Positions 24,809-63,999 of a stretch of DNA of 64,000 nucleotides are shown one piece after another. A program made the position numbers and the translations under genes. Origin of the DNA: a virus. Where the stretch lies: positions 3,583 to 67,582 of the IMG/VR virus record IMGVR_UViG_3300032236_001244; one strand, written 5' to 3'. The notes beneath the pieces are model-generated. The model saw nothing but the letters and a program-made list of their open reading frames with translations. It was not told where the DNA came from and made no database searches. Position 1 is the stretch's first letter. Every line of letters starts with the position of its first letter.

Positions 24809-27265
24809 TTACCTACCCATTGACTTCAAGGTGCGGTGAAGTTCTTTGAACTGCGCTTCAACATGGGTCTTGATTTGAGCCGTAGTCGCAGCGTCAGCAT
24901 TGCCGTGAATGACAATGTTTACGGCGTTGGGGTGAACATTGAGGGTGTTTCCGCCACGGTTGTTCATGCCCTTCAGTTGGTTAGCGGTCAGCACAGCCTC
25001 GCCAGCCTGAAGAATGGCTGGGACTTCACGCCCAGCAAGACCAGGCACGATACCGCCGTTGTGACGCTTTACGGGGGTCTTGGGGTTGCCACCAATGTGT
25101 TGAATGGTGCTGATGTGGACTGCCGAGCCAAGACCTGGTATCCAGCCGGTGGCGTCGTTCCAAATACGAACAAGCAGATTTACTGCGTCAATAAACCCAT
25201 TGACCAAACCGTTCCAAATGGTCTTTCCAAGATTGGTGATTGAGCGCCATAGCCCCATAAACAAACCAACAAGCCAATTAATACCAGCCGAGATTTTGTC
25301 CCACACCCACTTGAAACCTTCGTAAACGCCCTTCCATGCCAACTTCGCAGCGTCTACGATTGTGTTCCAAACGGCTTTCATTATTGTGACAAAACCCTTC
25401 CAATGCTTGACTAGCAAGTAAATAAGGGCAGCAATAGCAGCCACAATTGCGGTGATTGCCAAGACGATTGGGTTTGCCATGATAAAAGCAAACATTGTGG
25501 AGAGTGCCGGAATAATCGTTTCGGTGATTACCGTCACAAAAGCGGTTCCAACGGTGCGAATAATCATAATGAAGTTTGACCCAAACGCTTTGACCAAGGA
25601 GCCAGCCTTGCTGAGCGCCGAGCCAAACTTGCCTATGTACTGTTCCGCTTTAAGGAAGAAGGCGCCAAACTGTGAACCAAAACCACCACGCTGGGCAAGG
25701 ACGCCAGCCAACTTACTGACAATGTTGCCACCCGTGCTGATTTTTGACATCAACATAATTTCTTTTAGCGCCTTAAACTTTCCAATCAATCCGGTAACCA
25801 TTTCTGAAGCCATGGTGATTGGCGTAAGGAAAAGTTTGCGAGTGAACCATACTGCTGCGAGGGCAACCAGCACCGGCTTAAGAGGCCCTAGATTTTGGAC
25901 AATCTTGGTAATGCCCGTTAGCAACATGGTGATGAGCGGAGCAAGACCCCTCACAAGTTCGGCAAAAACCTTGACAAGGTACACAATGTCCGGAAGGGCA
26001 GCGACCAGCAGTGGTGTTAATGCGATTAACAACTTTGCGGTAGCGGTTGCCAAATCTGGAAGGATTGGTGCGAGGGTTACAAATGCCTGAACAAGGTTGT
26101 TCATCAACTCGCCAAGTTTGCCGTTCTTAGCCATGTCATTGAAGGACTGAGCAATGCTGTTTACAGCCTTCATGAGGTTGGCGTTAATGGCGTCTCCAAT
26201 CTTTTGGAAGATAAGAGCGAGGGGGCCTAACTTGTCTTTGGTACCCACCAACTTTTCAAACGCCTTGGAAAGTGGCGTTAATACAGCCTCTACCAACTTA
26301 ACAAGTGGCGTAATGATGTTAAGAAGGGCAGGAATGACCGAGTTGGTCATCAGGGTAAACAACGGAATAAGGTCTTTAAAGATGTTACCGAGTGCTGAAC
26401 CGAGGGTTGAAGCAACGGTCGCAATGGTGGTTCCCATGAACTGAAGAACCGGCATAAGAGCCTTGACGGGCTCAATAATTGCCTTAGCCAACTCATCAAG
26501 AATTGGTAGCAAACCCAATCCAAGCGACTGCCATACGAGCGCCACTTCGTTCTTCAGCAAGTCCACGGGGCTCTGGGCAGCGGCAGCAATTCCCTGCGTG
26601 TGCTTTCCAATTAACTGAATGGTCAAGTCCTGAGCCTTCAGCAAACCACCCGACTTTTCCAAAGCCTTAATACGGGCTTGTTCGGCTTGCGACAACTGAA
26701 AGCCCATGCGCCTCATTGAAGACATTGACTTTGCTGGGTCAGCCAGCATTCGGGTCAGCATTCGGGTGGTTGAGGTTATGTTGCCACCCGTAATCTCGGC
26801 AATGTTAGCAGCGTCGCTCAAAACGGTTTTCATTCCGTTCTTCATACTGCTGGTCATGGTCACCAAGTCCTGATTGGACATGATGAAAGTTTGCGCCTGA
26901 ACGATTGAAGCCTTATTAATACCGTTCTGGAGCGACAACTCCGTTGCCATGTTGTCAAGTCGCTGTGAGTACCAACGAGTTGCGTTGGCGTCACCCGTCA
27001 ATTGGTATTGCTTTTGAATACCTTGGTTCTTGATAAGTTGCGACTGAACCTTTTGAAGGTTTACAAGTTTGGAAGCACTGTCTACAGCCTGCTCAATACC
27101 GACGCCGACCGCTGTTAAGCCAATGGTTGTCTTAAGGAAGTTGCTTACATGAAAGAAGGACTGCTTGACTTTGCCAGCAGTAATTTCCGCAATGCGCTCA
27201 ACATCAGACATTGACGATTTGAAGTTGGAGACATCACCTAGAACCTTTACTCTGATGTTGCTCAT
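24809..27265 (-). CDS. Tape measure protein
   Basis: Follows the frameshifted chaperone; amphipathic/W-periodic repeats; HNGGIVPG..EVPAILQAGE C-terminus. Confidence 0.92.
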   Translation of the reverse strand: MSNIRVKVLGDVSNFKSSMSDVERIAEITAGKVKQSFFHVSNFLKTTIGLTAVGVGIEQAVDSASKLVNLQKVQSQLIKNQGIQKQYQLTGDANATRWYSQRLDNMATELSLQNGINKASIVQAQTFIMSNQDLVTMTSSMKNGMKTVLSDAANIAEITGGNITSTTRMLTRMLADPAKSMSSMRRMGFQLSQAEQARIKALEKSGGLLKAQDLTIQLIGKHTQGIAAAAQSPVDLLKNEVALVWQSLGLGLLPILDELAKAIIEPVKALMPVLQFMGTTIATVASTLGSALGNIFKDLIPLFTLMTNSVIPALLNIITPLVKLVEAVLTPLSKAFEKLVGTKDKLGPLALIFQKIGDAINANLMKAVNSIAQSFNDMAKNGKLGELMNNLVQAFVTLAPILPDLATATAKLLIALTPLLVAALPDIVYLVKVFAELVRGLAPLITMLLTGITKIVQNLGPLKPVLVALAAVWFTRKLFLTPITMASEMVTGLIGKFKALKEIMLMSKISTGGNIVSKLAGVLAQRGGFGSQFGAFFLKAEQYIGKFGSALSKAGSLVKAFGSNFIMIIRTVGTAFVTVITETIIPALSTMFAFIMANPIVLAITAIVAAIAALIYLLVKHWKGFVTIMKAVWNTIVDAAKLAWKGVYEGFKWVWDKISAGINWLVGLFMGLWRSITNLGKTIWNGLVNGFIDAVNLLVRIWNDATGWIPGLGSAVHISTIQHIGGNPKTPVKRHNGGIVPGLAGREVPAILQAGEAVLTANQLKGMNNRGGNTLNVHPNAVNIVIHGNADAATTAQIKTHVEAQFKELHRTLKSMGR

Positions 27266-32385: not shown

Positions 32386-33321
32386 TTAGTTTCCTTCCTT
32401 GTAAGAGGATACTGCGTCCTCTATAAAAACGGTTGTGGTGTTTGGCTCAACCAGCGTCTCTGTTGTACCCGTCTCGTTAAAACCCGAAAATGTAGGCTCG
32501 GCGTTGAGCGTGTTTTGTTTTGCTTCAATAAACAGGGTTGGATAGTTGGTGATTATTTTGTAGATGTACTGCCATACGGACAAGTACTGCTTCAAAAGAC
32601 TTTCGCCGTCTCTGCTGAGACTAATGCTTCGCAAAGCGGAAACACTTTGAGTGAGGGCGGAGTATGCGGAACTAATAAAGGAAACTGATTTTGGCGCTGT
32701 TGCGCTTTGGGTCAAATTGGAAGCGTTGCTTCGTGTACGACTTGACGATTTGGAGCCGTTGGCGAATTGAGATTGCTTAAGCGAAGCAAAACGATTTGCT
32801 GAAAGGGTTTTTGCGCTACTGACCGCCTGAACCGCTTTGGCGTATGCCGAAGTGATGTAAGAAACGCTTTTGGCATTTTGGGTGACTTGCGTTTCGCTTA
32901 CCGAGCCAGAACGAGTTTGCGTTGCGGTTTTTGAGTTATTTGTGCTTTGCGTTTCCGTTGCTGAACTGTAACGAATTTCCGCAACACTTTTGGCATTGCG
33001 GACAAATTGCGAAGCGTTCACAGCATTTGAGCGAACCCGAGAATTTTGGTTTGAGTTCTGTACAAATTGAACTTCGGTAGAAGCGTTTGAATGAACCGTA
33101 GCGGTTACTTTGGCTCCACTGGTGAATTGGAATGTAGCAACGGCTCCAACATTTTCTTCTTGGCGAGATTTGGCGTTGGTGATGTTTTCAAAAAGAATGG
33201 CTGTGCCACTGACAACATAGACAGTTGATGTTTGCCCAAGGTATAAACCGGCAAAGGAAGTCGTACCACCGCCGTTATAAAGCGTGGCAAATACTGTATA
33301 AGTAGGATTGCTGGTGGGCAT
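32386..33321 (-). CDS. S/Q/N-rich repetitive virion protein
   Basis: Degenerate ~20-aa repeats (Q...AKS). Confidence 0.6.
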   Translation of the reverse strand: MPTSNPTYTVFATLYNGGGTTSFAGLYLGQTSTVYVVSGTAILFENITNAKSRQEENVGAVATFQFTSGAKVTATVHSNASTEVQFVQNSNQNSRVRSNAVNASQFVRNAKSVAEIRYSSATETQSTNNSKTATQTRSGSVSETQVTQNAKSVSYITSAYAKAVQAVSSAKTLSANRFASLKQSQFANGSKSSSRTRSNASNLTQSATAPKSVSFISSAYSALTQSVSALRSISLSRDGESLLKQYLSVWQYIYKIITNYPTLFIEAKQNTLNAEPTFSGFNETGTTETLVEPNTTTVFIEDAVSSYKEGN

Positions 33322-33336
33322 AGCCCCTTACCAGCC

Positions 33337-33984
33337 TTAGTTGCTCATCACCCAAGTGGGAGTGACCTTCAGGGTGTCGTTGGGCGAAAGGGTGGGCGAA
33401 GAACCGTCGGAGAACGACGAAGCGTACAGTGCTGTTCCACCCGTTGAAGCGGTCGCAATGAAGAAACCGTACGAAGCCGACCAAGTTCCCGTGGCAATAC
33501 CGAAGGTGACCTGCGTTCCAACGGTCTTTTCTCCGTTAGCAGCGTCTCCAGCGGTAACCGTCGCACCGTTGCTTTGGTTAGAAGCAAGTGCTGATGAAAG
33601 AAGCACCTGATTTCCACCAGGCAGACCAATAACAACTTTCGCAGCCTCAGTTCCAACAACAATGGTCATGCCGACGACAAGACCCGTGGTTGAAGTGAGC
33701 GTCACAAGTTGCGAACCCGAAGAAGCAGCGCCGTTCAGCGTCGTGGTCAAAATAGGTGCGGTGAGGTACGAGTACGCACGGGTGGGTGCGCCAAACGAAG
33801 CAATCTGCCGTGAATAACCGGCGCCCGTCTGTTCGGTGATACCCGAACCAATGGTTGCCGTCGCCGTTGGGAAAGAACTGTCGGTAAAAAGACCGACATA
33901 CAGGTTTGAGTAAGTCGTTGGCGTAGCGGTGATTACCTGATTGAGCATGATAACCAGACCGCTGTTAAGAAAAACCTGTGACAC
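33337..33984 (-). CDS. Virion structural/fiber-associated protein
   Basis: LYVGLFT...E..G.GYSRQ...ATGTW...STGG..L motif with an inserted beta module. Confidence 0.7.
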   Translation of the reverse strand: MSQVFLNSGLVIMLNQVITATPTTYSNLYVGLFTDSSFPTATATIGSGITEQTGAGYSRQIASFGAPTRAYSYLTAPILTTTLNGAASSGSQLVTLTSTTGLVVGMTIVVGTEAAKVVIGLPGGNQVLLSSALASNQSNGATVTAGDAANGEKTVGTQVTFGIATGTWSASYGFFIATASTGGTALYASSFSDGSSPTLSPNDTLKVTPTWVMSN

Positions 33985-40479: not shown

Positions 40480-41460
40480 TTAGATAATGCTTGACCAGAA
40501 GTAGCCAAGGTCGGCAGCGACAACCTTGTTGTCAAAGGCGATTTCGCCTTCAACACGGTCAGCCTTCAACTCTTCCATGCGGAAGCGAGAAACACCGACG
40601 GTCGTGCCAAGACCACCCGAAACGCCCGTCCACATGAAGGTGTAGCCAGCCGAGGGGGTCATAAGACCAGGGTTGGGAGCCGTGTAGCACAGCAGGGCGT
40701 TGATACCCGTGGTGTACGAGTACGAGCCCGTGGCGCCTTCAACAGCCGAGTTGTAGACCGACTTGGCAACGAGAACACGGTCTACGCCGAACAGCGCAGC
40801 AAGCAAGTCCTCGGTCACAATCGCACCGGCTTGGGTGTACTTGTAACGGTCTACGAGCGTGGGGTGAGCCTTCAACTTCTGGAAGACAGCGTACGAGAGA
40901 ACCAAGGTGTTGGGCTCGTAGCCGGTCGTCTGAAGAATACGGGTCTTGGCGTTCTCAACATCAACAATCGGCGTTGAGTTCACATAGTCCGACCACTTAA
41001 TCGTCTGCGTGGTCGCAGGCGAGGTTGAGGTCGTACCCGTGATGTCGGTACCCCAAACGCCCGTGGTGAAGTAGTCCGAAGCCCACTGAATTTCACGACG
41101 GAGAAGGAGACGCTGAGTAACAAACTGCGTCGCTTCCATGTCGGGGTTGAGGGGGTTGTCGGCGTTCGCACGGGTCTGGTCACCAATGTCCTTGTGGAAG
41201 GCGAACACATCAGTCATGTAACTGTCGGTCGTCAAGCCGTAGCCGGAGCCAGCCGAAGCCGTACCGTCAGCACGACGCTGAGCCTCGTCACGGAACCAAT
41301 CGTCCTTCGTGTACTTGAAGTACAGGTTGGACTTCTTGTCCACGGGAATGGTGGGGAACACCTTGTCAGCAATGAAGTTGTTGGTGTTCTGAAGGTAAGC
41401 AACCGAGATGTTGGTCAAGATTGCGTCAATGTGAACATTGTTCACTGAGGGCTGTGGCAT
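40480..41460 (-). CDS. Major capsid protein (HK97 fold, lambda gpE-like)
   Basis: HIDAILTNISVAY, FIADKVFP, PSAGYTF; follows scaffold and decoration genes. Confidence 0.93.
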   Translation of the reverse strand: MPQPSVNNVHIDAILTNISVAYLQNTNNFIADKVFPTIPVDKKSNLYFKYTKDDWFRDEAQRRADGTASAGSGYGLTTDSYMTDVFAFHKDIGDQTRANADNPLNPDMEATQFVTQRLLLRREIQWASDYFTTGVWGTDITGTTSTSPATTQTIKWSDYVNSTPIVDVENAKTRILQTTGYEPNTLVLSYAVFQKLKAHPTLVDRYKYTQAGAIVTEDLLAALFGVDRVLVAKSVYNSAVEGATGSYSYTTGINALLCYTAPNPGLMTPSAGYTFMWTGVSGGLGTTVGVSRFRMEELKADRVEGEIAFDNKVVAADLGYFWSSII

Positions 41461-41479: not shown

Positions 41480-41893
41480 TTAAGCGCCACGACCGGCGTT
41501 TGCGAACGAAACGGCAGCGGTGATGATTTCGCCAGCGTTGTTACAAGCCGTCAGAGCGGTGCCAATGATGTACTTCGTGGTGTCGGTACCAAAAGCAGCG
41601 GTAACGACCTGACCGGAACCGTCCGTCATCAGAGGGGCGCCGACAGCAACGCCAGCACCGGCACGAACCTTACAAACACCCGAAACCGTAACTTCGGCTT
41701 CAAAGTTTGCCTTGGGCGTGTTCTGAAGGACACCGATACAACGGTCAGTAGCAGCCGCCGAAAGCGTAGCGCCAGGCGTGCCAGCGACAGGCGACGACAA
41801 CTTGACCAACTTGAATTGGTTAGAAAGGTCGGAGTAGTCGGCAGCAGCGACGAGCGAAATCTTTACAGCGTATGGGTTCTGTTCAAAAGCCAT
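41480..41893 (-). CDS. Capsid decoration/cement protein (DUF2190-like)
   Basis: IGVLQN.P, G..KV.AG, D..G....A, IGTAL. Confidence 0.85.
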   Translation of the reverse strand: MAFEQNPYAVKISLVAAADYSDLSNQFKLVKLSSPVAGTPGATLSAAATDRCIGVLQNTPKANFEAEVTVSGVCKVRAGAGVAVGAPLMTDGSGQVVTAAFGTDTTKYIIGTALTACNNAGEIITAAVSFANAGRGA

Positions 41894-41895: not shown

Positions 41896-42681
41896 TTAAC
41901 GACCCTTCTCGTTGAGGTAAGTGGTGTAGAGGTCAGGGTTCGCCTGAGCGACGCTCATAAGAGCAGCCTCAAACGAAGGAGCCGTACCTTCAGCAACAGC
42001 AGCCTTAGCGAGGTTGCTCATCTTGCTGTAGGCGTCGTCGGTCGCTACGGGAGCGTCCGAACCAACCTCGGAGAAAACGACATTGGTTTCCACGAGAGCG
42101 TTGGCGCTGTCCAGAGCCTTGACGATTTCGCCAGCGAGAACGCTGTCGGCTTCGGCAACACGGCGAAGGGCAGGGCCCACAATCGTGGGGTCAATGTTGA
42201 GGTGCGTCCAGCCAGCAGCCTTGACAACCGCAGCCTCATCAGCACGAGCGTCACGCTCGGCAATGAGGGCAGCCTCGGAAGCAGCAGCCTTACGAAGGGC
42301 AGCGTCGGCGTTAGCCGAAGCCTCGGACAACATCTTGCGGATTTGCTCAGGCATAGCCTTGATGATGTCAGCCTCGCTCGCACTCTCGGGAATGATAACT
42401 ACCTCGGGGGCAGTCTCTTCTGAGAATTCAGGCATAATTTCCTCCTGGAAATTAGTGAGGGTTTCCAAACCAGCGGTTGCTGATTTGGTTGTGTCCATAG
42501 CCTCGGTTACTACTGTCTCAGCGACAGGGGCTTCTCCGGCTTCCGGACGAAGTTCGTCAAGAACCGCAGAGGCTTCAGCAGGGGTAGCCGACTTCATTAC
42601 AACCCAACCGTCGTGAAGGTGAGCAGGACGGTCTACACCGCTTGTCTCCTTGATGTTGAGGCGTACTAACTTTCGTGCCAC
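41896..42681 (-). CDS. Capsid scaffold/maturation protein
   Basis: N-terminal IKETSGVDRPA segment like prohead-protease-associated proteins, then acidic coiled coil ending NPDLY..Y. Confidence 0.75.
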   Translation of the reverse strand: MARKLVRLNIKETSGVDRPAHLHDGWVVMKSATPAEASAVLDELRPEAGEAPVAETVVTEAMDTTKSATAGLETLTNFQEEIMPEFSEETAPEVVIIPESASEADIIKAMPEQIRKMLSEASANADAALRKAAASEAALIAERDARADEAAVVKAAGWTHLNIDPTIVGPALRRVAEADSVLAGEIVKALDSANALVETNVVFSEVGSDAPVATDDAYSKMSNLAKAAVAEGTAPSFEAALMSVAQANPDLYTTYLNEKGR

Positions 42682-43912: not shown

Positions 43913-44148
43913 TAAGCGTTTTCCTCAGCGTATTGCGAGAGGTGGCTGAATGGCTCCAACTCGTCAATCTTCTTGCCTGCGATTTCCAAAGCCTTGGTCA
44001 AACGCTCGTTGTCGCTTGCCAACTGCTCAATTGTCTCCTGCTGACGCAAGGCAATGTCAATCAATCTGGTGATGTCGTTCGTGTCGTAGGCGTCGTGAAC
44101 TAACGCCTTGTGAACACGCTCGGTCAATTCGTTTAGGGATACTGTCAT
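43912..44148 (-). CDS. Hypothetical coiled-coil protein
   Basis: SD AGGAG. Confidence 0.65.
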   Translation of the reverse strand: MTVSLNELTERVHKALVHDAYDTNDITRLIDIALRQQETIEQLASDNERLTKALEIAGKKIDELEPFSHLSQYAEENA

Positions 44149-44206
44149 TATTTCAACTCCTGTGTAGGGGGGTTGCCTAACTGTAGGTTATCACGCTTTA
44201 TCAGGT

Positions 44207-44599
44207 TCAACGCACTTCTCCGGTGTATTTGAGAAGTTCCGTAAATGGGCAATCCTTTTCTGGGCTGTACTCAACCTCGGTTTTTCGCCCACAATCAGCA
44301 CACTCAATCTTGAGGGGGTTGGAGACTTTGCGAACTCGCCAATCATGCTCGCAATAACGAGCGTCACCATTGTTGATGACACGAACGGTTTTCTTGTGGG
44401 GGTCACGGATAACCCGACCTTGGCGTTCCAAGTTGATAAGAAGGCGCTGAACGGTTGAGGTGGACTTGATGTCCATTGCTTTTCCAATGACCCGATACGA
44501 CGGTGGGAAGCCGTAGGACTGCCAAAATTTGCTGATGAAACGAACCGTCTCGTCGGCTTTAGTTTCAATGAATGAAGTGCCTTGGGCTTTTCCTGTCAT
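44207..44599 (-). CDS. LexA-type wHTH DNA-binding protein with Zn ribbon, no peptidase domain
   Basis: YGFPPSYRVIG....KSTSTVQR.L..LE.QG matches the LexA DNA-binding domain; CEH...CADC. Confidence 0.82.
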   Translation of the reverse strand: MTGKAQGTSFIETKADETVRFISKFWQSYGFPPSYRVIGKAMDIKSTSTVQRLLINLERQGRVIRDPHKKTVRVINNGDARYCEHDWRVRKVSNPLKIECADCGRKTEVEYSPEKDCPFTELLKYTGEVR

Positions 44600-44621
44600 G
44601 GTGATGACCATAGCAGAAAGC

Positions 44622-44639
44622 GAACAGTGTTCGCAAGTT
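44622..44639. promoter_or_regulatory. Operator-like palindrome, copy 1 (GAACAGTGTTC)
   Basis: Overlaps the -35 (TTGCGA) of the LexA-like gene promoter. Confidence 0.55.
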
Positions 44640-44641
44640 TT

Positions 44642-45208
44642 TTACCAATTGGATTGGCGAATTGGTTTGTACTGACCACTAATGGCTAGTTTGAAGGAAG
44701 GGTAGTCTCTCGTACCATACGAGAGCGTAATGGGGGAGACTTCGCACAAGTAGCCCTTAGAAGCAAGCGTATCCGCTACTGCCACAAGTTGAACTCTTGT
44801 TTTTTCTGCGTCCTGCGGTTGTTGTGGCTCAAAGCCCAATCTAAATCTGAAGTGATTGTCCGTCACAACAAGGTGATTGTCGTCGGACTTCATCATCTTC
44901 CAATTTGTCGTCATTGTGCGCCCCGTGGCATGGTTGCGAGCGGTTTGTACACTTCCGTACCAACCAACTTGGCTACCAAATTTTGAGGCTCCGTTGCTGA
45001 TAAGGATTTCTTCAATTTTCTTACCCAGCAATTTTCCGGAAGACATTGCGTTTGATTTGTCGTACTTTGTAAGACGGTACTTTTTTCTGTTTAAAAACTT
45101 CTCCGGTAACGCAGGAATGTGCGTCCATTGGTTTCCGTGAAAGTCATGTCCTAGGACATCACCCTTGGATAAGGGGTACAGGAGTTCATTGGTGGTGAAG
45201 CCGGACAT
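44642..45208 (-). CDS. KGD-tagged stand-alone protein, unknown cargo
   Basis: MSGFTTNELLYPLS-KGDVLGHDFHGNQW; leaderless TATCCT-N6-ATG. Confidence 0.8.
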   Translation of the reverse strand: MSGFTTNELLYPLSKGDVLGHDFHGNQWTHIPALPEKFLNRKKYRLTKYDKSNAMSSGKLLGKKIEEILISNGASKFGSQVGWYGSVQTARNHATGRTMTTNWKMMKSDDNHLVVTDNHFRFRLGFEPQQPQDAEKTRVQLVAVADTLASKGYLCEVSPITLSYGTRDYPSFKLAISGQYKPIRQSNW

Positions 45209-45293
45209 AAAACAAGGATACCGTACGGCAAACAAAAAAGCAATTATGCGCCTCAGCGAAGGGTCGCTACTAGAAGTGATGACCGTGGCATGA

Positions 45294-45311
45294 GAACAGT
45301 GTTCGCAAGTT
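45294..45311. promoter_or_regulatory. Operator-like palindrome, copy 2
   Basis: Identical 18-mer GAACAGTGTTCGCAAGTT. Confidence 0.5.
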
Positions 45312-45855
45312 ACTTCTTAGCGAAGTAGGCGTATTCCTTGGCTGCTCGGTCTGCTTTATCTTGGTTGTAATCAATCAACGATTGGCGTTCTGGTGTTCCC
45401 CATGTAGCCGGTTCAACCGTTGGGTCTTTAGCACGGTCTAGGTTTTGTTGGGTCTTGTACAAGCAACTTGTACCGTGTGGTGTTGGTATTTTTGTGTTTG
45501 CCACATAAGTTTTTCCAGCCTTGCTGGTGTACAGTTCAACCTTTTCATCACACATAGCGCAACGGTCACCGTGTTCCGTTGGAACAATAACCCCATGCTT
45601 GTATAAATCGTCTTGACAGTAGGTGTTCCACTTCCCGTCACGAGACTTGAAAACACCGCCCTTGAATGCTTCCACTTTGTCACCACAAATAGCACACTTG
45701 CCTGCGTAGGAGTTGAGCCTTACATAGCGGTTTGGCTTGTCTACGGGCTGACCATTAAAGCCAATAACCTGCCACTGATTTCCGTGAAAATCGTGACCGA
45801 CCACATCTCCCTTGGTCAAAGGGTAGAGCAAGGCTTCCGTGGTGAACTCTGTCAT
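45310..45855 (-). CDS. KGD-tagged stand-alone protein, Zn-ribbon cargo
   Basis: MTEFTTEALLYPLT-KGDVVGHDFHGNQW; CAIC and CAMC. Confidence 0.8.
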   Translation of the reverse strand: MTEFTTEALLYPLTKGDVVGHDFHGNQWQVIGFNGQPVDKPNRYVRLNSYAGKCAICGDKVEAFKGGVFKSRDGKWNTYCQDDLYKHGVIVPTEHGDRCAMCDEKVELYTSKAGKTYVANTKIPTPHGTSCLYKTQQNLDRAKDPTVEPATWGTPERQSLIDYNQDKADRAAKEYAYFAKK

Positions 45856-45873
45856 GGTTAAATTTTACCATGG

Positions 45874-46014
45874 CTACTTTGGGGTAGCAAGTAATGAAGT
45901 ATCGTCGTCAAGGTCGCAACGAATTGCCAAGGTGCGCTGGTGACGGTACTTGCCGTCCTCACCTTGGGCAATAGTCGCACCACAGCAAAAGCATTTTTCC
46001 TCGGGTTTTGTCAC
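45874..46014 (-). CDS. Small Cys-rich protein (46 aa)
   Basis: Hand-found GTG ORF after TGG-TATGGT-N7. Confidence 0.5.
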   Translation of the reverse strand: MTKPEEKCFCCGATIAQGEDGKYRHQRTLAIRCDLDDDTSLLATPK

Positions 46015-46052
46015 GGAAGAAACCATACCAGATGAAAGTTTCCAAAACTGCC

Positions 46053-46160
46053 TTGACGGGGGTTGATTGTGTGGTAGGCTTCGCCCGAATTCTTAGGGGA
46101 GAATGGACACAACGCTGAGAACTCGCAAAGACCCTCACTTCGGTGGGGGTCTTTGATTTA
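46053..46160 (+). ncRNA. Candidate small RNA (promoter, ~70-nt body, terminator)
   Basis: TTGACG-N16-TAGGCT with TG extension; 13-bp stem with UUCG loop at 46126-46155. Confidence 0.45.
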
Positions 46161-46433
46161 CCTAGCCGTTTTGCTTAGTTCCAATTCTTTCGCTGCTTCA
46201 AGCAAAAGTTCGGTGGTGAACTGCTTGGCAGAAAGACCGTCCTCGTGATGTGCGAGCAATCTTCCAGCGGTAATGCTGAAAGCCCATTGGTACAAATCCA
46301 ATTCTTTTCGCAAATCGGTAATGACCTGCTCTTGGTTTCGTGCCGTCAATGATAAGGCGTCGTGGTATTCAATCATTGAATTAAGAGCCTTGCGTGTTTC
46401 CGCAAGTGCCTTTTTCAATTCTGGCTTACGCAT
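46158..46433 (-). CDS. Hypothetical coiled-coil protein
   Basis: ORF packed in the operon. Confidence 0.55.
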   Translation of the reverse strand: MRKPELKKALAETRKALNSMIEYHDALSLTARNQEQVITDLRKELDLYQWAFSITAGRLLAHHEDGLSAKQFTTELLLEAAKELELSKTAR

Positions 46434-46590
46434 TGTGCTGATACTTTTCTGGGACTTCGCCACGGTATTCAGCACCGTTGAACTCTGGAGAAAAAGCAAA
46501 CTTTGCTGGGCAGTGGGTACAAGTTACCCAAGTGCTTGCGCCCAAGTTCATCAGCACCCACTTGTGTCGGTTGTTTACACACTTAGCCAT
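46426..46590 (-). CDS. Small Cys/His protein (54 aa)
   Basis: Hand-found; SD AAAGGA; C....H.W...CTHC. Confidence 0.55.
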   Translation of the reverse strand: MAKCVNNRHKWVLMNLGASTWVTCTHCPAKFAFSPEFNGAEYRGEVPEKYQHNA

Positions 46591-46762
46591 TTAGATTTCC
46601 TTTAAAGAATTGGATTACTTCGTTGTTGAAGGCGTCTGCTTCACGCTTGGTGGCAAAGTCTGGCGACATCATGACCGAGTAGTAATAGCCGTCACCGTCA
46701 CGATAGGTCTTCACATAGAAACTGTTACCCGTCCAAATGGAAACAAGTTGTGGTTTCTTCAT
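46583..46762 (-). CDS. Small hypothetical protein (59 aa)
   Basis: Hand-found ORF filling the gap between neighbours. Confidence 0.45.
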   Translation of the reverse strand: MKKPQLVSIWTGNSFYVKTYRDGDGYYYSVMMSPDFATKREADAFNNEVIQFFKGNLNG

Positions 46763-46768
46763 GGTGAT

Positions 46769-46975
46769 TTAGTACTCTAAATTTTCCATGGCGATAGCGT
46801 TCTCTTCCCACATTTCGGGCGTACCCAATCGCACCACATGGATACAAAAATCAACACCAACTTCAAACAGTCTGTTTTCCGTTTCGGTTGTCGGGTATCC
46901 AGCGTGGGTGTCACATACCTGTTCGGTACAGAAACCATTTGCTACGCCAAAGGCGAGCCATTCTTCAAATGTCAT
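46769..46975 (-). CDS. Hypothetical protein
   Basis: Leaderless TGG-TATGGT-N6-ATG. Confidence 0.65.
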   Translation of the reverse strand: MTFEEWLAFGVANGFCTEQVCDTHAGYPTTETENRLFEVGVDFCIHVVRLGTPEMWEENAIAMENLEY

Positions 46976-47011
46976 GGTGCCACCATACCAAAATTGGCAT
47001 GGTCGTGCTGA

Positions 47012-47458
47012 TTACCAACTTCTACATCTACCGTCTTGGTCGGGGACATAGTTGGGAATACCACCGTGCGCCTGAATGCGACGGGCAATGAAAACCTGCT
47101 CTTCTGGTGAAGCGTTGCCAGCGGTGGCGCCAAACTGAAGACCGCCAAATCTCACCCAAACATCATTGCGGATACCTAGCGCACCGGAGTAGGAGCGCCA
47201 GCCTTGGTGAACTTGGCTCCAATTCTTGTGGCTTTCGCACTGAGCCACTCGCTCCCACAGCGCCATGGTCTGGGCGTCCACAAGCGGTGGCACGGTCACG
47301 GGAACCGTCGTGGTCGGTGGTGCTGATTGCGTGTAGTCAATGACCGTAACCGTTTTAGGTTCGGTGGTCGTCGTGGAGCCCAAAGAGGTTTTTCCGCTCG
47401 TTATGAAACCAAGCGTGACGGTGAGGGCGAGGGCAACCCCTCGCACCACAACTAACAC
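47012..47458 (-). CDS. Secreted resuscitation-promoting-factor (Rpf)-like lytic transglycosylase
   Basis: Signal peptide, T/P linker, WERVAQCES..NW...GG...A..ASPEEQ..IA. Confidence 0.88.
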   Translation of the reverse strand: MLVVVRGVALALTVTLGFITSGKTSLGSTTTTEPKTVTVIDYTQSAPPTTTVPVTVPPLVDAQTMALWERVAQCESHKNWSQVHQGWRSYSGALGIRNDVWVRFGGLQFGATAGNASPEEQVFIARRIQAHGGIPNYVPDQDGRCRSW

Positions 47459-47629: not shown

Positions 47630-48715
47630 TTAACCCTTAAAATCGGGCGGTAAAGCAACCTCACACACACAATTTGGGTGGAGCGGTGGAAGGGGGTCGC
47701 CAATCTGAAAGGTGGCTTCTTGAGCCAAGCATTCCTTACAGGCTCCCTCGTACGAAATCCAAACAAGTTCGGTGATACCAGCCTGTTGGAATTGGTCAAG
47801 CATGGATTGGTTGTAAGCGGTCTGGGCTTCGGTACCAATAATCATGTCCGCTCGGTCGCCACCAAAAGTTCCGGCGTTGATTGCGTCAATGATTTCTTGT
47901 GCTGATAAACCCCCGTCTAGTCCAGAGGAAATCTGGTCGGTGACGCTTCCAAGCGTGGTGTCCGTAATCCCGTTCGCTACATCAGGGCTGTTGGCAAGCA
48001 AATCGCTCATGCCACCCGTGCCATTTACAATGGCGTCTTGTGCTGATTGGGAGTTGCCCACATTCCAATTTGAGAGGGCAAGACCAGCGACGAAGGCTGC
48101 TAAACCGCCGACAAGCCAAGCCTTGGAGCCAAGGTCGCTCTGGGCTTGGTCGGTTCCATAAACCCCAGCGTCGCCGTAAATGTTGTCAAGGGCGTCTATC
48201 AGGTCGGTGTTGTCCGTGGTCAAATTGTCGCTAACCGCTTGCTGGGCAATCATTTGGTGGCTTTGCGAGTTCGTGTAGGCGTTCGGGTGGTGAACCGCAC
48301 TATTTACCGCCTCGTTTAGACCCTTGATTGAGCCAGCCAAAGCGGTAGCCATAAGTGGTGAGTAGTGGCTCACGATTTTCTTGTTCATTTTGCGACCGGA
48401 CATTTCCGACTTTTTGCGCTTGCTGATTTCAAGGCTTTTGGAAACGCCTTCAACCGAAGCAACAATTCCTCTTGCCCACGAGTAACCGGCGTCCCCACCC
48501 CACGCTTCCCATGCGACACGACCGTGAGACGGGTAGCCCTTTTCGCCGTGGTGAAAGCCCTCGGCTTTTTGGTCGGGCTGGTGTCTGTCAAAATACGCCT
48601 TCATGCGCTTGACGGTTTTGTAAGAAACGGCGTGACCTGCTGCTAAATCTGAGGCTCGCTTGCGTCCGGTGTCGGTGAAGCCACCGCCTTGCTTGCCTTC
48701 CTTGAGCCATTCCAA
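47630..48715 (-). CDS. MuF (SPP1 gp7-like) head morphogenesis protein with extra N-terminal domain; true start likely upstream via frameshift
   Basis: RA..I..TE...A, C..C, PPLHPNCVC; N-terminal KRM.AYF.RH...AW..WGGD domain. Confidence 0.88.
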   Translation of the reverse strand: MEWLKEGKQGGGFTDTGRKRASDLAAGHAVSYKTVKRMKAYFDRHQPDQKAEGFHHGEKGYPSHGRVAWEAWGGDAGYSWARGIVASVEGVSKSLEISKRKKSEMSGRKMNKKIVSHYSPLMATALAGSIKGLNEAVNSAVHHPNAYTNSQSHQMIAQQAVSDNLTTDNTDLIDALDNIYGDAGVYGTDQAQSDLGSKAWLVGGLAAFVAGLALSNWNVGNSQSAQDAIVNGTGGMSDLLANSPDVANGITDTTLGSVTDQISSGLDGGLSAQEIIDAINAGTFGGDRADMIIGTEAQTAYNQSMLDQFQQAGITELVWISYEGACKECLAQEATFQIGDPLPPLHPNCVCEVALPPDFKG

Positions 48716-59500: not shown

Positions 59501-60383
59501 AATTAGGATTTTCGCTCTTGATTTGCTGTACCTGTTCCCATGTGTATTTGTTTCCGTCAGTAATCCATTTTCCGCTTTCGTCTTTGACGGGGTGTAGGTA
59601 ATACGCTGGTTCTGGCAAGCGAGGCTTTCCGTCACCGCCAACAATCATGGTTTTGCCGTACTCTTGGTCGCCGTTCCAATCCTTACCGTCTGCTCGTTTG
59701 CCAATTCGTGCTTCAAGTGCTTCTTTCGCTGCTAGGTACCCACCGACATGAACACCGTAGTTAGCGACCTTCAATCCTGCTTTACCGTTTGGTGAACCGT
59801 GCCAATAAACCTTGTGACTAACTCCGTCAATAATGGTGTATTGATTTCCGTGAAAAGCGTGACCTTCTACATCACCCTTTGACACGCCCGTGGTCGGGTC
59901 GTAGCCGAACTCGTTGATACTGTCGGCGTTGGTGAATACGGTCTTGGCTGGCACCGTCATAGAGATGACCTTGCCACCGCCCACCACATTGCCCTCGGCG
60001 TGGTTTTCGGCGTAGGTCTTAGATAGCGTGACCCAATCTCCGGTGTTGATTGTGTCTACATCTTTGGGAACGCCACGATAAATGGTCACCATTGCGTCGG
60101 GATTTCCCTTGACAGCATTGATAACCTTTAGGCTCTCCCCGTCCGCCTTGTCGTCTCCACCGGAGCCGTAGTAGCGCAATGCCTTGTCGCTGTAAATGTC
60201 TGGTGGGTAGATTTGGTCTAGGGCGTGAAGTGGAGCGCAAAACCCGTCGTTGCTCGGTGCTGAATGGTCACGGCGGTACGAGACATCTTCCGTAGCGTCC
60301 ACGGTCTTGTATTGGTTTCCGTGAAACTCGTGTCCTTCTTTGTCGCCCTTGGTGACCAGACGCAAGATGTTACGGAAATCCAT
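56541..60383 (-). CDS. 1280-aa tagged effector polyprotein: ART-like x2, HDxxGH peptidase-like, ART-like, kinase
   Basis: 5 KGD tags; modules of 157/230/251/327/304 aa after an 11-aa leader. Confidence 0.88.
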   Translation of the reverse strand: MDFRNILRLVTKGDKEGHEFHGNQYKTVDATEDVSYRRDHSAPSNDGFCAPLHALDQIYPPDIYSDKALRYYGSGGDDKADGESLKVINAVKGNPDAMVTIYRGVPKDVDTINTGDWVTLSKTYAENHAEGNVVGGGKVISMTVPAKTVFTNADSINEFGYDPTTGVSKGDVEGHAFHGNQYTIIDGVSHKVYWHGSPNGKAGLKVANYGVHVGGYLAAKEALEARIGKRADGKDWNGDQEYGKTMIVGGDGKPRLPEPAYYLHPVKDESGKWITDGNKYTWEQVQQIKSENPNWAYNSRGAIYSDGSPIPMDSKPNLFPVAITGSMKNTPLAPISDDRANSTMTRNLSAGNAKNGYYYSNEGEGVTVDANGNLVNDISAVVPSAEHLTVIPKEQVVAKGDKTGHEFHGNQWTGGKGGNTYLAKGASDYAKLHGINRPDIDYSRVQVNPERAKAIANEYVGLPSLDESARPAYRQFAKETHQQFEYLTKTLGIKVDVVKDDPYKNEQEMAQDILDNHHLSVLSADSTGGHPFVSNREIEEFRAVHDAFGHAATGRDFDRHGEEAAWASHSTMYSPLASLAMTTATRGQNSVMTQLGGGFPEQKGALLSPQWADPSTLSFTDGVSKSMDDIRPCFGGGRAQYDYQHSLINKGDKVGHAFHGNQYKEGESGEPTVSPELRQRVRDFAEGFVPSQFVETYTNNLSKILASPERYEKLRAELVAGGDNSFGGADITAIAMLGGANGVPKVVSNSAFSKIDSPVLYQGLTSGTEINNPGANRPAEGVTAENMVANFAYNPVPHFGGGDYGIAYYTSQEPSVSGQYANGEDNAMLRMKLLPDAIIMNYDRAERTFDYNQDGVKQLLADAGFKNFDVKGNRETSWYLSTMNTTAMLCGVSALTRDTPYGQYTMVLDRSQVSVANTYTKIDPSYWDTAGTTTTGVYDSTPLLDPKDFGANGATGKNPLITNAKIDQTLTKALVQKGDVKGHVFHGNQWIDAEGNFNPNGNRKPRAPKSQSPKANRISRLASSVKDGAKEGKFVALKDNLVAKVIGNKLKLGGAFNEGWQKVEMKDGTLAGVKTIAGADVNDGDPANTTQAQNEVLASAVGKALDIPIRDAQFVPAMGAIDANPPNDAPADQPWLSRKIVSPWIDGKSGYETKIPDTPEAQADLNKIQFFDQLVGNGDRFMDGELFNHGNIMVTTNGSLVGIDHSFAFPEKGSDFYNSIPVPDFNLLGSPTREELEGIHASLMALKPTFTSMNRTESFGEMLARFQTGAITYMSNKGMI

Positions 60384-60822: not shown

Positions 60823-62664
60823 CTATTTTTGGGGGAATGCGCTACTAAATAGTCTGACGACACCCCGAACATCTCCCTTTTGTACGGGCTTGCCATGCCA
60901 AAGCGGTCTTTGTTCGCTTAGGTCGGAAGTAGGAAATGGGCGCTCCGCAATTGTTCCTTGCTGTTGGGCGTTTCCAAAGTAGCGAACCTCTACGGGTACC
61001 TCTTTCATGCCGAGTTCAACTGCTGCGTCTCGGCGGTGATTTCCCTCAGCAATAACCGGAGTTCCGTCGTAGTCCACGGTGATAAAGATTGGCTCCTTAA
61101 TACCGTTTTTGGCAATGTCCGCTTTAAACTTTTCCCAATCGTCGCCCTTGTACATTCGGTGGTCAAATGGCTTCTCGCCCGAGGCGCCAAGCATGAACTT
61201 GATTGCGTCGGTGGGAATGGTTCCACTTTCGTTGCGAGTGATGTGGTCGTAGCGACCCGTTTTGCCTTCGTAGTCTTTGCCCGTTAGGTGAAAGCCAGCC
61301 CGACCTTCGGTGTACTGATTTCCATGAAACTCATGACCTTCTACATCACCCTTGTAGACCTTGCTTGCGTCGTGGTTCCACGCCCCAAAAGCCGGTTCAA
61401 TTTCGCTAAGTGGCGGTCGGACGCTTTCGGGTATTTCGGAATACCGGACACGATAAGCAGCACCTGCTTGCTTTGAACCGCAGGTATCACCAACTAGTCG
61501 CCAAGAGCCAGCCCGTGCCTCTGGCGTGTTGGGGTCAAAGAATTTGTCCGAGCGAAGCACATTGCCGTTTTTCAAATCACGGAAAAGCCATGCTGTTTTT
61601 GGGTCTATGATTTTTCCGCAGTGAGCGCAAGTTGCTTCAGCCTTTTGCTGTTTGGCTTTGTCAAGATTGCGGTTGTAGAGAACATCATTGAATGTTCCAA
61701 ATTCGCCACCAAATGCGCCACCAACAATTGGATACCGGCTCAGGTCGCCACCAATCCATTGGTTGCCGTGGAACTTATGTCCTTTGACATCACCCTTAAG
61801 AACAGGGGTCTGAGGGGGTAGCGGTGGGATTAGATTGTCTGGGGCAATGACACGAACAGAGACGAGTGCTTGATTGTAATTACGAGCGTTGATGTGGTCA
61901 ATGCTTGTTACTTCCATTTTCAGGTCACGACCAAGCAAGAGTTCCGCTTCGTCCTTAACGCTAACAAATCCACCACCACTGTATGGGCTAGTCGGTCTAA
62001 ATAGTGCTGGCACCCCTTCGGGAATTGTCATGAGCATTTCGGAACTTCTACTGCGCCCGAAAGAAGGCTTTGCGTCTCGCAGTAAATCCCAAGTTCTGTT
62101 GTCGTCTAGGTTGGTTAAACTTTCTTGGAAAAAAAGTTTGGGGTTTAGCGTTGTTGATTGGTAGGCAGGGTCGGTGATAATTTGACCAACCTTTAGGTCA
62201 TTGACATTTATTTGCTTACCGTTTTCGTCCATAAAGGTGTTTCCGGTAAACCGAGCAGCGTAATAGGTTCCGTCAGTTGGTGTTGAGGCGAGTTGCTTAT
62301 CAATTGAGTTAATTTCTTCCGCAACCCCTTCACGCCTATACTCTCCTGAAAAAATGTTGCCTATTGTGCCTGTTTGGTCAAAGTCTGACGCACTTCCATT
62401 GCGAAGCCACCTGTTCAAGGTGTCGTTTCCTATGGCAATGTATTTACTTACATCACTGTTGTAAGGAATTTCCTTCCACCTCGTTGTTTCCATTGCCCTT
62501 TTTTGCGAATTAAGCATTAAATTCATACGATTTCTGGCAATTTTTTCAATGCGTTCTTCTGCTGTTGTTGAACCCGAAATTCCTTCTGTCCACTGATTGC
62601 CATGAAAGGCGTGACCTTGAACATCTCCCTTGGTGATGTTACGAAGAATGGAAGCGAAGTCCAT
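60823..62664 (-). CDS. 613-aa tagged polyprotein: VIP2-like ART, Zn-binding module, ParB/Srx domain
   Basis: 3 tags plus a truncated 4th; N.WLR..R..QSTT..EAELLL; CAHC; GIKEPI...EGNHRR.A. Confidence 0.88.
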   Translation of the reverse strand: MDFASILRNITKGDVQGHAFHGNQWTEGISGSTTAEERIEKIARNRMNLMLNSQKRAMETTRWKEIPYNSDVSKYIAIGNDTLNRWLRNGSASDFDQTGTIGNIFSGEYRREGVAEEINSIDKQLASTPTDGTYYAARFTGNTFMDENGKQINVNDLKVGQIITDPAYQSTTLNPKLFFQESLTNLDDNRTWDLLRDAKPSFGRSRSSEMLMTIPEGVPALFRPTSPYSGGGFVSVKDEAELLLGRDLKMEVTSIDHINARNYNQALVSVRVIAPDNLIPPLPPQTPVLKGDVKGHKFHGNQWIGGDLSRYPIVGGAFGGEFGTFNDVLYNRNLDKAKQQKAEATCAHCGKIIDPKTAWLFRDLKNGNVLRSDKFFDPNTPEARAGSWRLVGDTCGSKQAGAAYRVRYSEIPESVRPPLSEIEPAFGAWNHDASKVYKGDVEGHEFHGNQYTEGRAGFHLTGKDYEGKTGRYDHITRNESGTIPTDAIKFMLGASGEKPFDHRMYKGDDWEKFKADIAKNGIKEPIFITVDYDGTPVIAEGNHRRDAAVELGMKEVPVEVRYFGNAQQQGTIAERPFPTSDLSEQRPLWHGKPVQKGDVRGVVRLFSSAFPQK

Positions 62665-62667
62665 GAC

Positions 62668-63999
62668 CTAGACCGTCCAAGTTTTTGGAGCGTCTACGCA
62701 AAAGTTCTGACCGTCCGACCAACCGTTGAGGCTTTCGTAAATCTCTTGGTCGGTGGTGTCTTGGTTGAGAACCGCCTTGTTCAGACGACGCTCATTGGAA
62801 ACCCAAAACTCTCCGTCGCCCGTGAAGGTGGTGAACTTGCCGTTTTCTAGGGTAGCGGTACCCGTCGCACCGGCTTCGGGGTGTGCGAAGTCGTAGAAGT
62901 AAAGGACTTGTGCTGATTTCTTAACCGAAAGTTTGCCAATGCCCTCAACGCCAGCCGGAATTGGAACCGATTGCCACATGGAAATCATCTTGGCTTGACC
63001 GTCTGCGTACGCTTGCGACGAAGGGTCTAGCAAACGAACCTGCTCGTAAATGGGGTGAACTTCCCCAACCATGGCTTGGCTTTCGGGCGTGTGGAACTGA
63101 ACCTCAAACTTTTGGTTGGTGGTGGTGTCACGGAACACGCAGTTAATCCCACGGTAGGAGTTTTGGGGGTCGTCGTTAAAGAAGTTCTTTACCTTTAGGG
63201 CTTCAAAGCCTTCGGTCTTAAAGTCAGCGAGCGACTTTGCTACTCCTTCACCAAACTTTTCCGTGGGGAATTGAAGGGTGTAGCGAACGGTGTCGCCAAG
63301 ATTTTCTGCTGCTACTTGGAGCGCACCGGACTTGGTGTCAAGGTATTCCGAGGTGTCCTTTTCCAATTTGCGAGCGATAGAGGCTTCGTCTTTCAGCACA
63401 AATTCTGGCTTAATGCGAGTTGCTCCGTACTGCTTACAGGTTTCATCAATTTCTCGTGAGATTTCCGGCTCAGCCTTTTTTGCTCGTTGGTACAAAAGCG
63501 AAGCAAGTTGGCGAGCGTTGCGAGGTGGTGAACTTGGCTTGCCACCCTCTCCCTTACCGCCCGTGTATTGATTGCCGTGGAATTCATGTCCTTCTTTGTC
63601 GCCCTTGGCAACCGGCTTGCGGTACTTACCGCCACGACGCTTGTATTCCTGAACGACCCAACCGTTGGCGACCGCTGAAGGGTAGACATCAAACTTTGCC
63701 TTAGCGTCAGCCTTGACCTTTTCGTAGAGGTCGGTGTCTACCGGCTCACCCTTTTGGTCGCTGATAATGCGCTCGTACTTGTTCTTGGTGACTTCGCTCG
63801 GAGCCTTGCCAGCAGGTGCGCCCGTAGCGTCCATGTGGCGCAGTTGGCAAAAACCTTCGGGATTGTCAAGGTGTTTCCCAGCGATTGCTACGCAAGCGTC
63901 AAAGTCGCCCTCGGAACCCCAATTGATTTGACCGTCGGCACCGTCGTTGTACCACTGAATGAGAGCCTCGGCATTGCCAGCCTTGTGGATTTCAACCTC
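62668..63999 (-). CDS. Multidomain protein with tagged RelA/SpoT-like (small alarmone synthetase-type) domain; 5' end outside the window
   Basis: Frame is open to the window edge (EVEIHKAGNAEALIQW...); K..SIARK, DTVRY, YRGIN, EVQFHT; upstream WG..GDF..C and YPSA.AN..VV.EYK..GG.Y domains. Confidence 0.85.
   Translation of the reverse strand, partial: EVEIHKAGNAEALIQWYNDGADGQINWGSEGDFDACVAIAGKHLDNPEGFCQLRHMDATGAPAGKAPSEVTKNKYERIISDQKGEPVDTDLYEKVKADAKAKFDVYPSAVANGWVVQEYKRRGGKYRKPVAKGDKEGHEFHGNQYTGGKGEGGKPSSPPRNARQLASLLYQRAKKAEPEISREIDETCKQYGATRIKPEFVLKDEASIARKLEKDTSEYLDTKSGALQVAAENLGDTVRYTLQFPTEKFGEGVAKSLADFKTEGFEALKVKNFFNDDPQNSYRGINCVFRDTTTNQKFEVQFHTPESQAMVGEVHPIYEQVRLLDPSSQAYADGQAKMISMWQSVPIPAGVEGIGKLSVKKSAQVLYFYDFAHPEAGATGTATLENGKFTTFTGDGEFWVSNERRLNKAVLNQDTTDQEIYESLNGWSDGQNFCVDAPKTWTV

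Follow-up and report, generated by a model that had tools for sequence, protein, structure and literature searches.

A two-part N-terminal peptide on unrelated proteins of an uncultivated phage, a candidate address for head-packaged effectors

To our knowledge, the details of how polyvalent or injected effectors are loaded into a phage head have been worked out for just a few model phages, T4 among them. The internal proteins of T4 are described as diverse, with one conserved element, the capsid-targeting sequence (CTS), as their only common feature (PMC3012670), and this CTS is reported to be an N-terminal pro-peptide of 10 to 20 residues that is cut off by the prohead protease and that is also carried by the ADP-ribosyltransferase (ART) Alt (PMC5694885). 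For polyvalent effectors, in turn, the prediction is that they are carried within the virion and injected (PMC9503650; PMC5512222). Here, we focused on a 64,000-nucleotide stretch (referred to as the window) of the IMG/VR virus record IMGVR_UViG_3300032236_001244, in which three single-module genes start with a shared leader, here called FTT type, followed by a 14-residue tag that also recurs in neighboring polyproteins (Table 1). By analogy with T4, we tentatively read the FTT leader and tag as a portable N-terminal peptide, similar to the CTS, that would address effectors for packaging into the head or serve in their processing, a reading that we favor although we give it slightly less than an even chance.

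The tag, KGDxxGHxF[HR]GNQ[WY], was found 20 times in a six-frame scan of the window, always on the minus strand, with eight copies in an open reading frame (ORF) of 2,411 amino acids (aa), five in one of 1,280 aa, three in one of 613 aa, one in an ORF that continues beyond the window end and one in each of the three stand-alone genes. These three genes read as the preliminary description had claimed, opening on the minus strand with M-x(2-3)-FTT-x-x-LLYP-[IL]-[TS] and continuing with the KGD of the tag, and translation confirmed that the polyprotein genes starting at 60383 and 62664 open with MDF-x-x-ILR-x-[VI]-TKGD. For the middle stand-alone gene, the ORF lister proposed an alternative TTG start at 45235; the ATG at 45208 is preferred, since it agrees with the recorded 188-aa protein as well as with the leader family. 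Two further tags, on the plus strand, lie in the 3.5 kb by which the contig exceeds the window, one in a fourth FTT-type gene and the other behind an NPF-like leader in a gene truncated at the contig end, and leaders of 14 to 15 residues are common to four genes of the contig. A six-frame scan of the 67.6-kb contig gave eight occurrences of the relaxed motif F[ST][TN]..[LI]L, against 0.78 on average and never more than 3 in 50 mononucleotide shuffles, and four of the eight occurrences are leader-plus-tag gene starts. FTT-like motifs without a full tag lie at window positions 46200 to 46220 (minus strand), near the C terminus of a 113-aa ORF just upstream of the gene starting at 45855, and at G000:C1:807-827 and 2021-2041 (plus strand). 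One of these tagless motifs is internal to a ParB-like ORF, where ..VLKSD follows, and one is N-terminal in an ORF of 112 codons; they look like degenerate junctions.

Table 1. Positions of the tagged genes and of other features (window positions unless stated otherwise).
Feature	Position	Strand	Details
Sequenced stretch (window)	Bases 3583-67582 of the record		Linear 67,582-bp IMG/VR virus record IMGVR_UViG_3300032236_001244 (G000), uncultivated phage
Tagged gene, 173 aa	6381-6902	-	FTT-type start at 6902; leader MTSGFTTTELLYPIT (6858-6902), tag KGDFKGHPFRGNQY (6816-6857); cargo modeled as GNAT-fold acetyltransferase
Tagged gene, 188 aa	44642-45208	-	FTT-type start at 45208; leader MSGFTTNELLYPLS (45167-45208), tag KGDVLGHDFHGNQW (45125-45166); cargo without detectable relatives
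Tagged gene, 181 aa	45310-45855	-	FTT-type start at 45855; leader MTEFTTEALLYPLT (45814-45855), tag KGDVVGHDFHGNQW (45772-45813); Cys-rich cargo
Promoter-like site	45862-45890	-	TTGCTA-17-TAAAAT with TG extension; ends 6 nt before the ATG at 45855; consensus match only
MDF-type leader and tag	60351-60383 and 60309-60350	-	MDFRNILRLVT + KGD...; heads the 1,280-aa polyprotein gene
MDF-type leader and tag	62632-62664 and 62590-62631	-	MDFASILRNIT + KGD...; heads the 613-aa ART/ParB-like polyprotein gene
Fourth FTT-type gene	G000:C1:2334-3083, outside the window	+	Start MASGFTNAELLYPLTKGD; weak ART-PolyVal hit, E 0.004, below cut-off
Tape-measure protein gene	24809-27265
Major head protein gene	40480-41460	-	phrog_1005, E 7e-100
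Cement protein gene	41480-41893
261-aa protein gene	41896-42681		No Pfam hit
MuF-like minor head protein gene	47630-48715	-	PHROGs minor-head, portal and MuF-type families

Behind this shared start, the three proteins diverge completely, as had been noted from the translations. Similarity in BLASTP is confined to the first ∼30 residues in all three pairs, and full-length homology among the cargos, the outcome named beforehand as contrary to the idea of a peptide on unrelated proteins, was found by neither BLASTP nor hhalign. The latter gave probabilities of 0.2% for the family of the 173-aa protein against that of the 181-aa protein and of 0.1% for the former family against the 188-aa protein, and it aligned the family of the 181-aa protein with the 188-aa protein only over columns 1 to 39 versus 1 to 33. 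Pfam returned nothing at an E value of ≤0.01 for the 173-aa protein. Its AlphaFold2 model has a mean predicted local distance difference test (pLDDT) score of 87.8, with most of the cargo above 90 and residues 1 to 17 below 50, and a Foldseek search of the Protein Data Bank (PDB) with this model gave GNAT acetyltransferases as the best hits (E values of ∼5e-6, TM scores of ∼0.5 to 0.6) among 253 matches with an E value of ≤0.001. Judged from the model, the cargo has a GNAT fold, and leader and tag form a low-confidence extension (block means of 38, 47 and 62), which shows them, at the level of the prediction, as flexible and separate from the cargo fold. Among 60 candidate relatives of the 188-aa protein, only the protein itself and a leader-only match (P0006, 15% coverage) were found, and no family in Pfam, PHROGs or NCBIfam matched it. 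The cargo of the 181-aa protein contains two conserved CxxC pairs and further Cys and His residues, with Cys columns kept in three homologs, and is read as Zn-ribbon-like from its sequence; its structure model (pLDDT of 43) was unusable and was discarded.

The preliminary description had explained the shared start by the grafting of a DNA cassette of ∼90 bp, an explanation that the nucleotide sequences do not support in this form. When the four FTT-type genes are compared in pairs across the 25 codons that run from F to W/Y, 17 to 21 residues are identical, of which 8 to 12 per pair (about half) are encoded by differing codons, and the longest exact nucleotide run between pairs is just 8 to 11 nucleotides. 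Given these synonymous differences and short exact runs, the similarity of leader and tag must be old and held by selection on the peptide. The same data bear on the idea that the shared start is a functionless remnant of a recent duplication or of shared ancestry of the 5' ends of the genes. The two adjacent genes at 44642 to 45855 are indeed the most alike over the 25 codons (55 of 75 nucleotides), as such a remnant would have it, but synonymous sites are nearly saturated while the peptide stays, the same leader is present in 27 proteins of 13 cargo clusters on many contigs, and the cargos show no residual similarity. We therefore regard a remnant as scarcely credible. What the comparisons show is a leader-plus-tag peptide that is maintained by selection and present on many unrelated cargos.

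To describe the two elements beyond this contig, a profile built from eight leader-plus-tag stretches was searched against 1.84 billion protein cluster representatives. This yielded 1,021 proteins at an E value of ≤0.001, 375 of them at ≤1e-10, with sizes of up to 3,461 aa and up to nine matched stretches per protein. The census below refers to 153 proteins with 540 tags, namely, the best 150 of the 1,021 profile hits and three homologs found earlier. The tag consensus starts with [VLI] at position -7, followed after one variable residue by K (63%), L (15%) or A (9%) at position -5, and continues as G-[DE]-x-x-G-H-x-F-[H 62%, R 35%]-G-N-Q-[W/Y]-T-x-G. Counted over the 540 tags, the residue at -5 is K in 311, L in 76, A in 38 and F in 17, and each contig uses one choice at this position in the loci seen. 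The first tag begins within 45 residues of the N terminus in 84 of the 153 proteins, the median spacing from tag to tag is 204 aa, and the distance from the last tag to the C terminus has a median of 240 aa and falls below 40 aa in a single protein of the 153, showing that every module, including the first, has its own N-terminal tag. A leader of 5 to 38 residues (median of 16) always precedes the N-terminal tags, and the hydrophobic residue at -7 is equally kept in N-terminal (63/84) and internal (326/456) tags. A tag variant, KGG-x-GSGAQ-x-GH-x-F-x-GNQ, was seen at positions 95306 and 97508 of the related genome G001 and in loci L004, L005, L007 to L010, L016 and L020, but not in the window; it often lies ∼20 residues downstream of F-[ST]-T-x-x-LL-T-[RK]-x-F-Q-K-S.

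The position of the tag at module boundaries, together with the 99 to 100% conservation of its G, H, F, G, N and Q over the 540 tags, would also suit a processing or activation junction unrelated to capsid targeting. Such a junction would be cut by a phage or host protease, or cleave itself at the invariant Asn, and toxic modules would thereby be freed or activated in the infected cell or in the one that produces the phage; the leader would be an inhibitory or stabilizing pro-peptide. The many toxin-like enzyme cargos (an ADPrib_exo_Tox hit, a kinase-like module and the GNAT fold) and the location of FTT-type genes among early-type genes agree with this. A pure separator is, however, needless before a first module or on a single-module protein, and yet more than half of the census proteins start with a tag; moreover, the strong clustering of tags beside portal and MuF genes points to the head, and no protease was recognized. 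We thus consider a junction of this kind quite unlikely.

The preliminary description had further distinguished two leader classes, MDF and FTT. In place of two classes we found many families, of which at least four recur and share genomes. Those recurring on shared contigs comprise the FTT/NPF type, the MDF type, the W type (D-x-E-I-x-x-W-I-x-x-A-KGD) and others, and leaders are very diverse overall. FTT- and NPF-type leaders intergrade, with a variable spacer before YP-x-[ST]-KGD. The string LLYP[LIV][ST]KG is N-terminal in 15 of its 19 occurrences and internal in 4, compared with 84 N-terminal positions among all 540 tags, which makes the FTT element strongly, though not exclusively, N-terminal.

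Searches for the leader on other cargos in relatives, and for cargo homologs that lack it, were both successful. The 27 proteins with an N-terminal leader of FTT type fall into 13 cargo clusters, a lower bound owing to single linkage, in agreement with the notion of a modular unit on unrelated cargos. Conversely, one cargo can have different leaders: among homologs of the Zn-ribbon-like cargo, P0003 (68% identity) is FTT led, P0004 has a W-type leader, and P0002 has an NPF-type leader that is not homologous to that of the 181-aa protein, despite a cargo that is 83% identical. The 29 hits for the GNAT cargo consist of the query, 4 FTT-led proteins, 2 internal modules (in one case following an ART domain), 21 untagged proteins and 1 leader-only match. 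Module 2 of P0023, where the FTT sequence is internal, and the product of the fourth FTT-type gene match each other from end to end (42% identity, E value of 5e-52), and this product also aligns with the stand-alone P0137, so that both the GNAT cargo and this ART-like cargo are found as stand-alone proteins and as internal polyprotein modules. The alignments show, then, that leader families are interchangeable on one cargo and that cargos shift between stand-alone genes and polyprotein modules.

Several of the untagged GNAT homologs (P0161 to P0181) have, in place of the tag, an N-terminal HPRDxxGR[FW] followed by a Gly/Ser-rich stretch; P0170, P0173, P0176 and P0177 match this expression, and others contain near variants. 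The polyprotein P0029 combines five GH..GNQ tags with one motif of the HPRD type, and HPRD motifs may form a second such tag system. These two motifs in one position, like the several conserved leader classes within one genome, would be expected if leader and tag were a handle for some other partner, be it a shared chaperone or neutralizer, an assembly bridged by metal via the His residues or a target of coencoded modifying enzymes, with the leader families mirroring different partners. The second His is replaced by Arg in about a third of the tags, however, and we found neither a candidate partner nor direct support for such a handle, which we judge improbable.

Gene context was assessed with the help of G001, a relative of 121,340 bp that has direct terminal repeats, is rated 100% complete and is syntenic with this contig, with a capsid protein of 76% identity. 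Of its 24 tags, 17 are grouped in a block that comes directly downstream of the portal and a MuF-type protein, and two genes of this block have MDF-type leaders; the other seven, found at 15 to 33 kb with SNF2 helicase, ParB-like, HNH and C92-like genes around them, all belong to small genes with leaders of FTT/NPF type. Tags likewise follow a portal and a MuF-type protein in locus L004. In the window, the two tagged genes at 44642 to 45855 sit between the MuF gene and the genes for the scaffold-position, cement and capsid proteins, and that of the 173-aa protein is placed among HNH, C92-like and helicase genes, not beside head-morphogenesis genes. Traffic between genes and modules is also visible between the two genomes: a ParB-like cargo encoded at this contig's left end forms part of a polyprotein in G001, as an internal module, and the kinase-like last module of the 1,280-aa protein corresponds to two MDF-led single genes there.

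Over both genomes, all four MDF-type leaders lie inside the head polyprotein operon, on genes with neither a Shine-Dalgarno (SD)-like run nor a -10-like hexamer, and all eight FTT-type leaders are on genes outside it. This pattern fits the earlier suggestion of different targeting or timing for the leader classes. The MDF-led genes of this contig start 3 to 5 nucleotides behind the preceding stop; for the gene starting at 60383, which has neither of the two signals, the distance is 5 nucleotides, and upstream of the 613-aa gene an ORF ending at 62668 (window positions 62662 to 62670, minus strand) stops in frame one codon before the ATG. Read-through at 62668 would join both proteins and turn the MDF sequence into an internal junction. 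As for the FTT-type genes, a leaderless -10 of its own had been claimed for each of the three. A consensus scan bore this out for the gene starting at 45855, in a region where the number of promoter-like sites is no higher than in shuffles; the other two did not pass the scan and have weaker hexamers seen by eye only, namely, TTGCTT-17-TATCCT (8/12 matches) upstream of 45208 and TANNNT at 6 nucleotides, with nothing stronger, upstream of 6902. No SD-like run precedes any of the three.

On the CTS-like reading, leader and tag would label a protein as an extra module of an effector set that is otherwise encoded as polyproteins beside MuF. The tag before every module would be recognized by a component of head assembly, the stretch just upstream of it (with a hydrophobic residue at -7 and K/L/A/F at -5 before G-[DE]) would be a maturation cut site, and the leader of 14 to 15 residues would be removed as a pro-peptide, in the way in which the CTS is removed from the internal proteins and Alt of T4. 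The FTT family would be the version for independently expressed genes outside the polyprotein operon, and the MDF family the version for genes translated inside it. Even in the shortest leaders, a hydrophobic-x-[KLAF]-G-[DE] stretch is kept in front of the tag. Prohead proteases generally cut at a hydrophobic-x-P1 pattern, and hydrophobic-x-[KLAF] before G-[DE] fits it, making this stretch a putative cut site.

Several observations weigh against this reading. Searches of the contig (54% complete) for Peptidase_S78, Mu-like_Pro and Peptidase_S49 gave no match over cut-off, nor did searches of the complete G001 for these three families and CLP_protease. Two of the four FTT-type genes here, and five of five in G001, are distant from the head genes and have helicase, ParB-like and accessory genes around them; they could be early genes, which would fit packaging less well. 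In addition, SD-like runs were seen at five of six FTT-type genes of the relatives G001, L003 and L006, and the leaderless pattern is thus not kept. We accordingly rejected the leaderless-promoter layout as a trait of the leader class, plausible though this layout is for the phage itself. Lastly, the tag might act without cleavage.

In one alternative, the peptide would serve for docking and stay uncleaved: the tag, with the leader as a spacer or helper, would bind to the HK97-fold shell from inside, in the manner of the cargo-loading peptides of encapsulins, or to the scaffold, MuF or portal, and the polyproteins would remain whole, held through many tags together. One tag per module with up to nine per protein, the Gly-rich and flexible T-x-G-x-G after the tag in the consensus, the modeling of the tag as a flexible extension and the lack of a protease family match in the complete G001 are what one would expect in that case. 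It leaves unexplained, however, why a hydrophobic-x-K/L/A/F stretch and at least five leader residues stand before N-terminal tags and why conserved leader families exist at all, and we consider it unlikely.

Two protease candidates were followed and dropped. The nearest named Atlas neighbor of the 261-aa protein is a Mu-like_Pro cluster (score of 0.85), a lead that the family search did not confirm, and an S49-like stretch in the 2,070-aa polyprotein of G001/G004 is sub-threshold at 12 bits and has no Pfam support. The Mu-like_Pro domain is present only in the LGD-type lineage (G002 and G005).

From its genes, the phage is of siphovirus type, with a MuF protein and a lambda-E-like capsid protein. 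The closest cultured relatives of the latter are found in Arthrobacter phages, at 50 to 55% identity (54.6% for Arthrobacter phage Ottawa), and an Rpf-type transglycosylase domain is encoded at 47012 to 47458; both features suggest an actinobacterial host. The Pfam model Phage_Mu_F matches the MuF-like gene with an E value of 5e-5, under the family cut-off. Searches of the contig for the SPP1_portal, Phage_portal and Portal_Mu families gave no hits, and no terminase was recognized among the ORFs scanned on the record; the portal and terminase genes probably lie off the contig. CheckV estimates the record to be 54% complete, and the joining of the contig ends into a circular genome was dropped, since the record is a linear fragment of this completeness. 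Each of the three tagged proteins is recorded on one further contig, the longest of 112,870 bp, which together with the CheckV value suggests a genome of ∼115 to 125 kb, as in G001.

A few further features of the contig were recorded. A 134-aa gene at 44207 to 44634 (minus strand) encodes a LexA DNA-binding domain (E value of 6e-11), and the perfect palindrome GCGAACACTGTTCGC lies at 44620 to 44634, just upstream of this gene and directly downstream of the gene for the 188-aa protein. At window positions 1 to 3372 (minus strand), a SNF2-family helicase contains a LAGLIDADG domain; its homolog in G001 aligns to residues 1 to 386 and 729 to 1124 and not to the intervening part, which suggests an intein-like insert that is present here and missing in G001. 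Weak matches to Peptidase_C92 (permuted papain-like; E value of 9e-5, under cut-off) were found for the gene at 5651 to 6181 (minus strand) and at 32939 to 33433 in G001. In both genomes this C92-like gene, which could encode a lysis enzyme or a processing peptidase, adjoins a stand-alone tagged gene, that of the 173-aa GNAT protein here and an NPF-led gene (tag at 32780) in G001.

Looking for the tag in cultured phages, we found no match in the phage collection with blastn of window positions 44000 to 47000 or with tblastn of the 181-aa protein, and tblastn of the 1,280-aa polyprotein gave cargo-domain matches only, mostly in mycobacteriophages. The phages Laroye (first 22 kb) and KPP23 (28 kb), whose capsid proteins are related, contain no tags. 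In bacterial genomes, 28 stretches with the tag pattern were found at nine loci, all on contigs of metagenome-assembled genomes from mixed phyla, and no prophage context or host could be obtained from these nine loci.

A sharply conserved tag with exchangeable leaders in 1,021 protein clusters provides a concrete sequence handle on effector loading. As a possible tool, such a peptide might serve to pack foreign proteins into capsids, as the T4 CTS has been reported to do (PMC5694885). For annotation, the tag flags candidate injected effectors, many of them of unknown fold, in metagenomic phage genomes, and it allows the turnover of effector sets to be followed, since whole units of tag and cargo move between single genes and polyproteins. 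A bolder proposal, which we hold to be doubtful, is a two-part peptide address code in which the near-universal 14-residue tag marks modules and the four or more leader families per genome (FTT/NPF, MDF, a helix type with W, and others) set the loading route, timing or copy number. If this were true, any ORF could become a virion-delivered effector by gaining ∼30 codons, modules would pass freely between stand-alone genes and polyproteins, and a natural, programmable cargo loading for an HK97-fold capsid would exist in a lineage in whose complete genome no known prohead protease family was found.

Among the described systems, cargo-loading peptides of encapsulins are short, conserved, usually C-terminal and uncleaved, and they steer unrelated cargos into an HK97-fold shell. 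The peptide described here is likewise a short terminal sequence conserved across unrelated cargos (27 proteins, 13 clusters). It differs in lying on the N-terminal side of modules and in its unrelated sequence, and capsid binding is putative in this case. The MuF polymorphic toxins, as presented by Jamet et al. (2017, PMC5576092), similarly link variable toxin-like cargos to the head module via MuF, but there the cargo is fused to MuF, whereas here MuF is encoded by a separate gene and the cargos have a short peptide; searches of the three tagged proteins with Pfam and PHROGs gave no MuF domain.

The neighboring proteins of 613, 1,280 and 2,411 aa fit the description of polyvalent proteins by Iyer et al. 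(2017, PMC5512222) as multidomain, ART-rich effectors beside MuF and portal genes that are predicted to be packaged and injected. The three stand-alone genes, in contrast, have one tag and one cargo each, not 2 to 15 effector domains, and the pair at 44642 to 45855 shares the location beside head genes, while the gene of the 173-aa protein does not. Processing is proposed in that work to be by zincin-like peptidase domains, unlike here, and its main text contains no "GNQ" or intermodule tag with leader families, although its supplements could list such a motif.

No family in Pfam, PHROGs or NCBIfam covers leader or tag, a search of the PDB with the leader-plus-tag profile gave only a chance match to Kaede (E value of 0.065), and the motif strings are absent from the searchable literature, so that the motif appears to be undescribed so far. 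Its closest counterpart is the CTS of T4 (internal proteins IPI to IPIII and Alt), a likeness of design, with targeting and cleavage putative here. Both are short N-terminal peptides (10 to 20 residues in T4, 14 to 15 before the tag here) on unrelated proteins, several of which are enzymes, and cargo content is described as differing among related phages in T4 as well (PMC3012670, PMC5694885). Unlike the CTS, the conserved part here is bipartite, with a leader of a variable family ahead of a 14-residue tag that is nearly universal, and the tag is repeated before every polyprotein module; no protease or core scaffold of T4 type was recognized, and the phage is of siphovirus type, not T4-like. 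A shared short leader on diverse head-packaged proteins is thus already known from T4, and what is new is a design in two parts, the deployment of this design ahead of each polyprotein module and the coexistence of several leader families within one genome.

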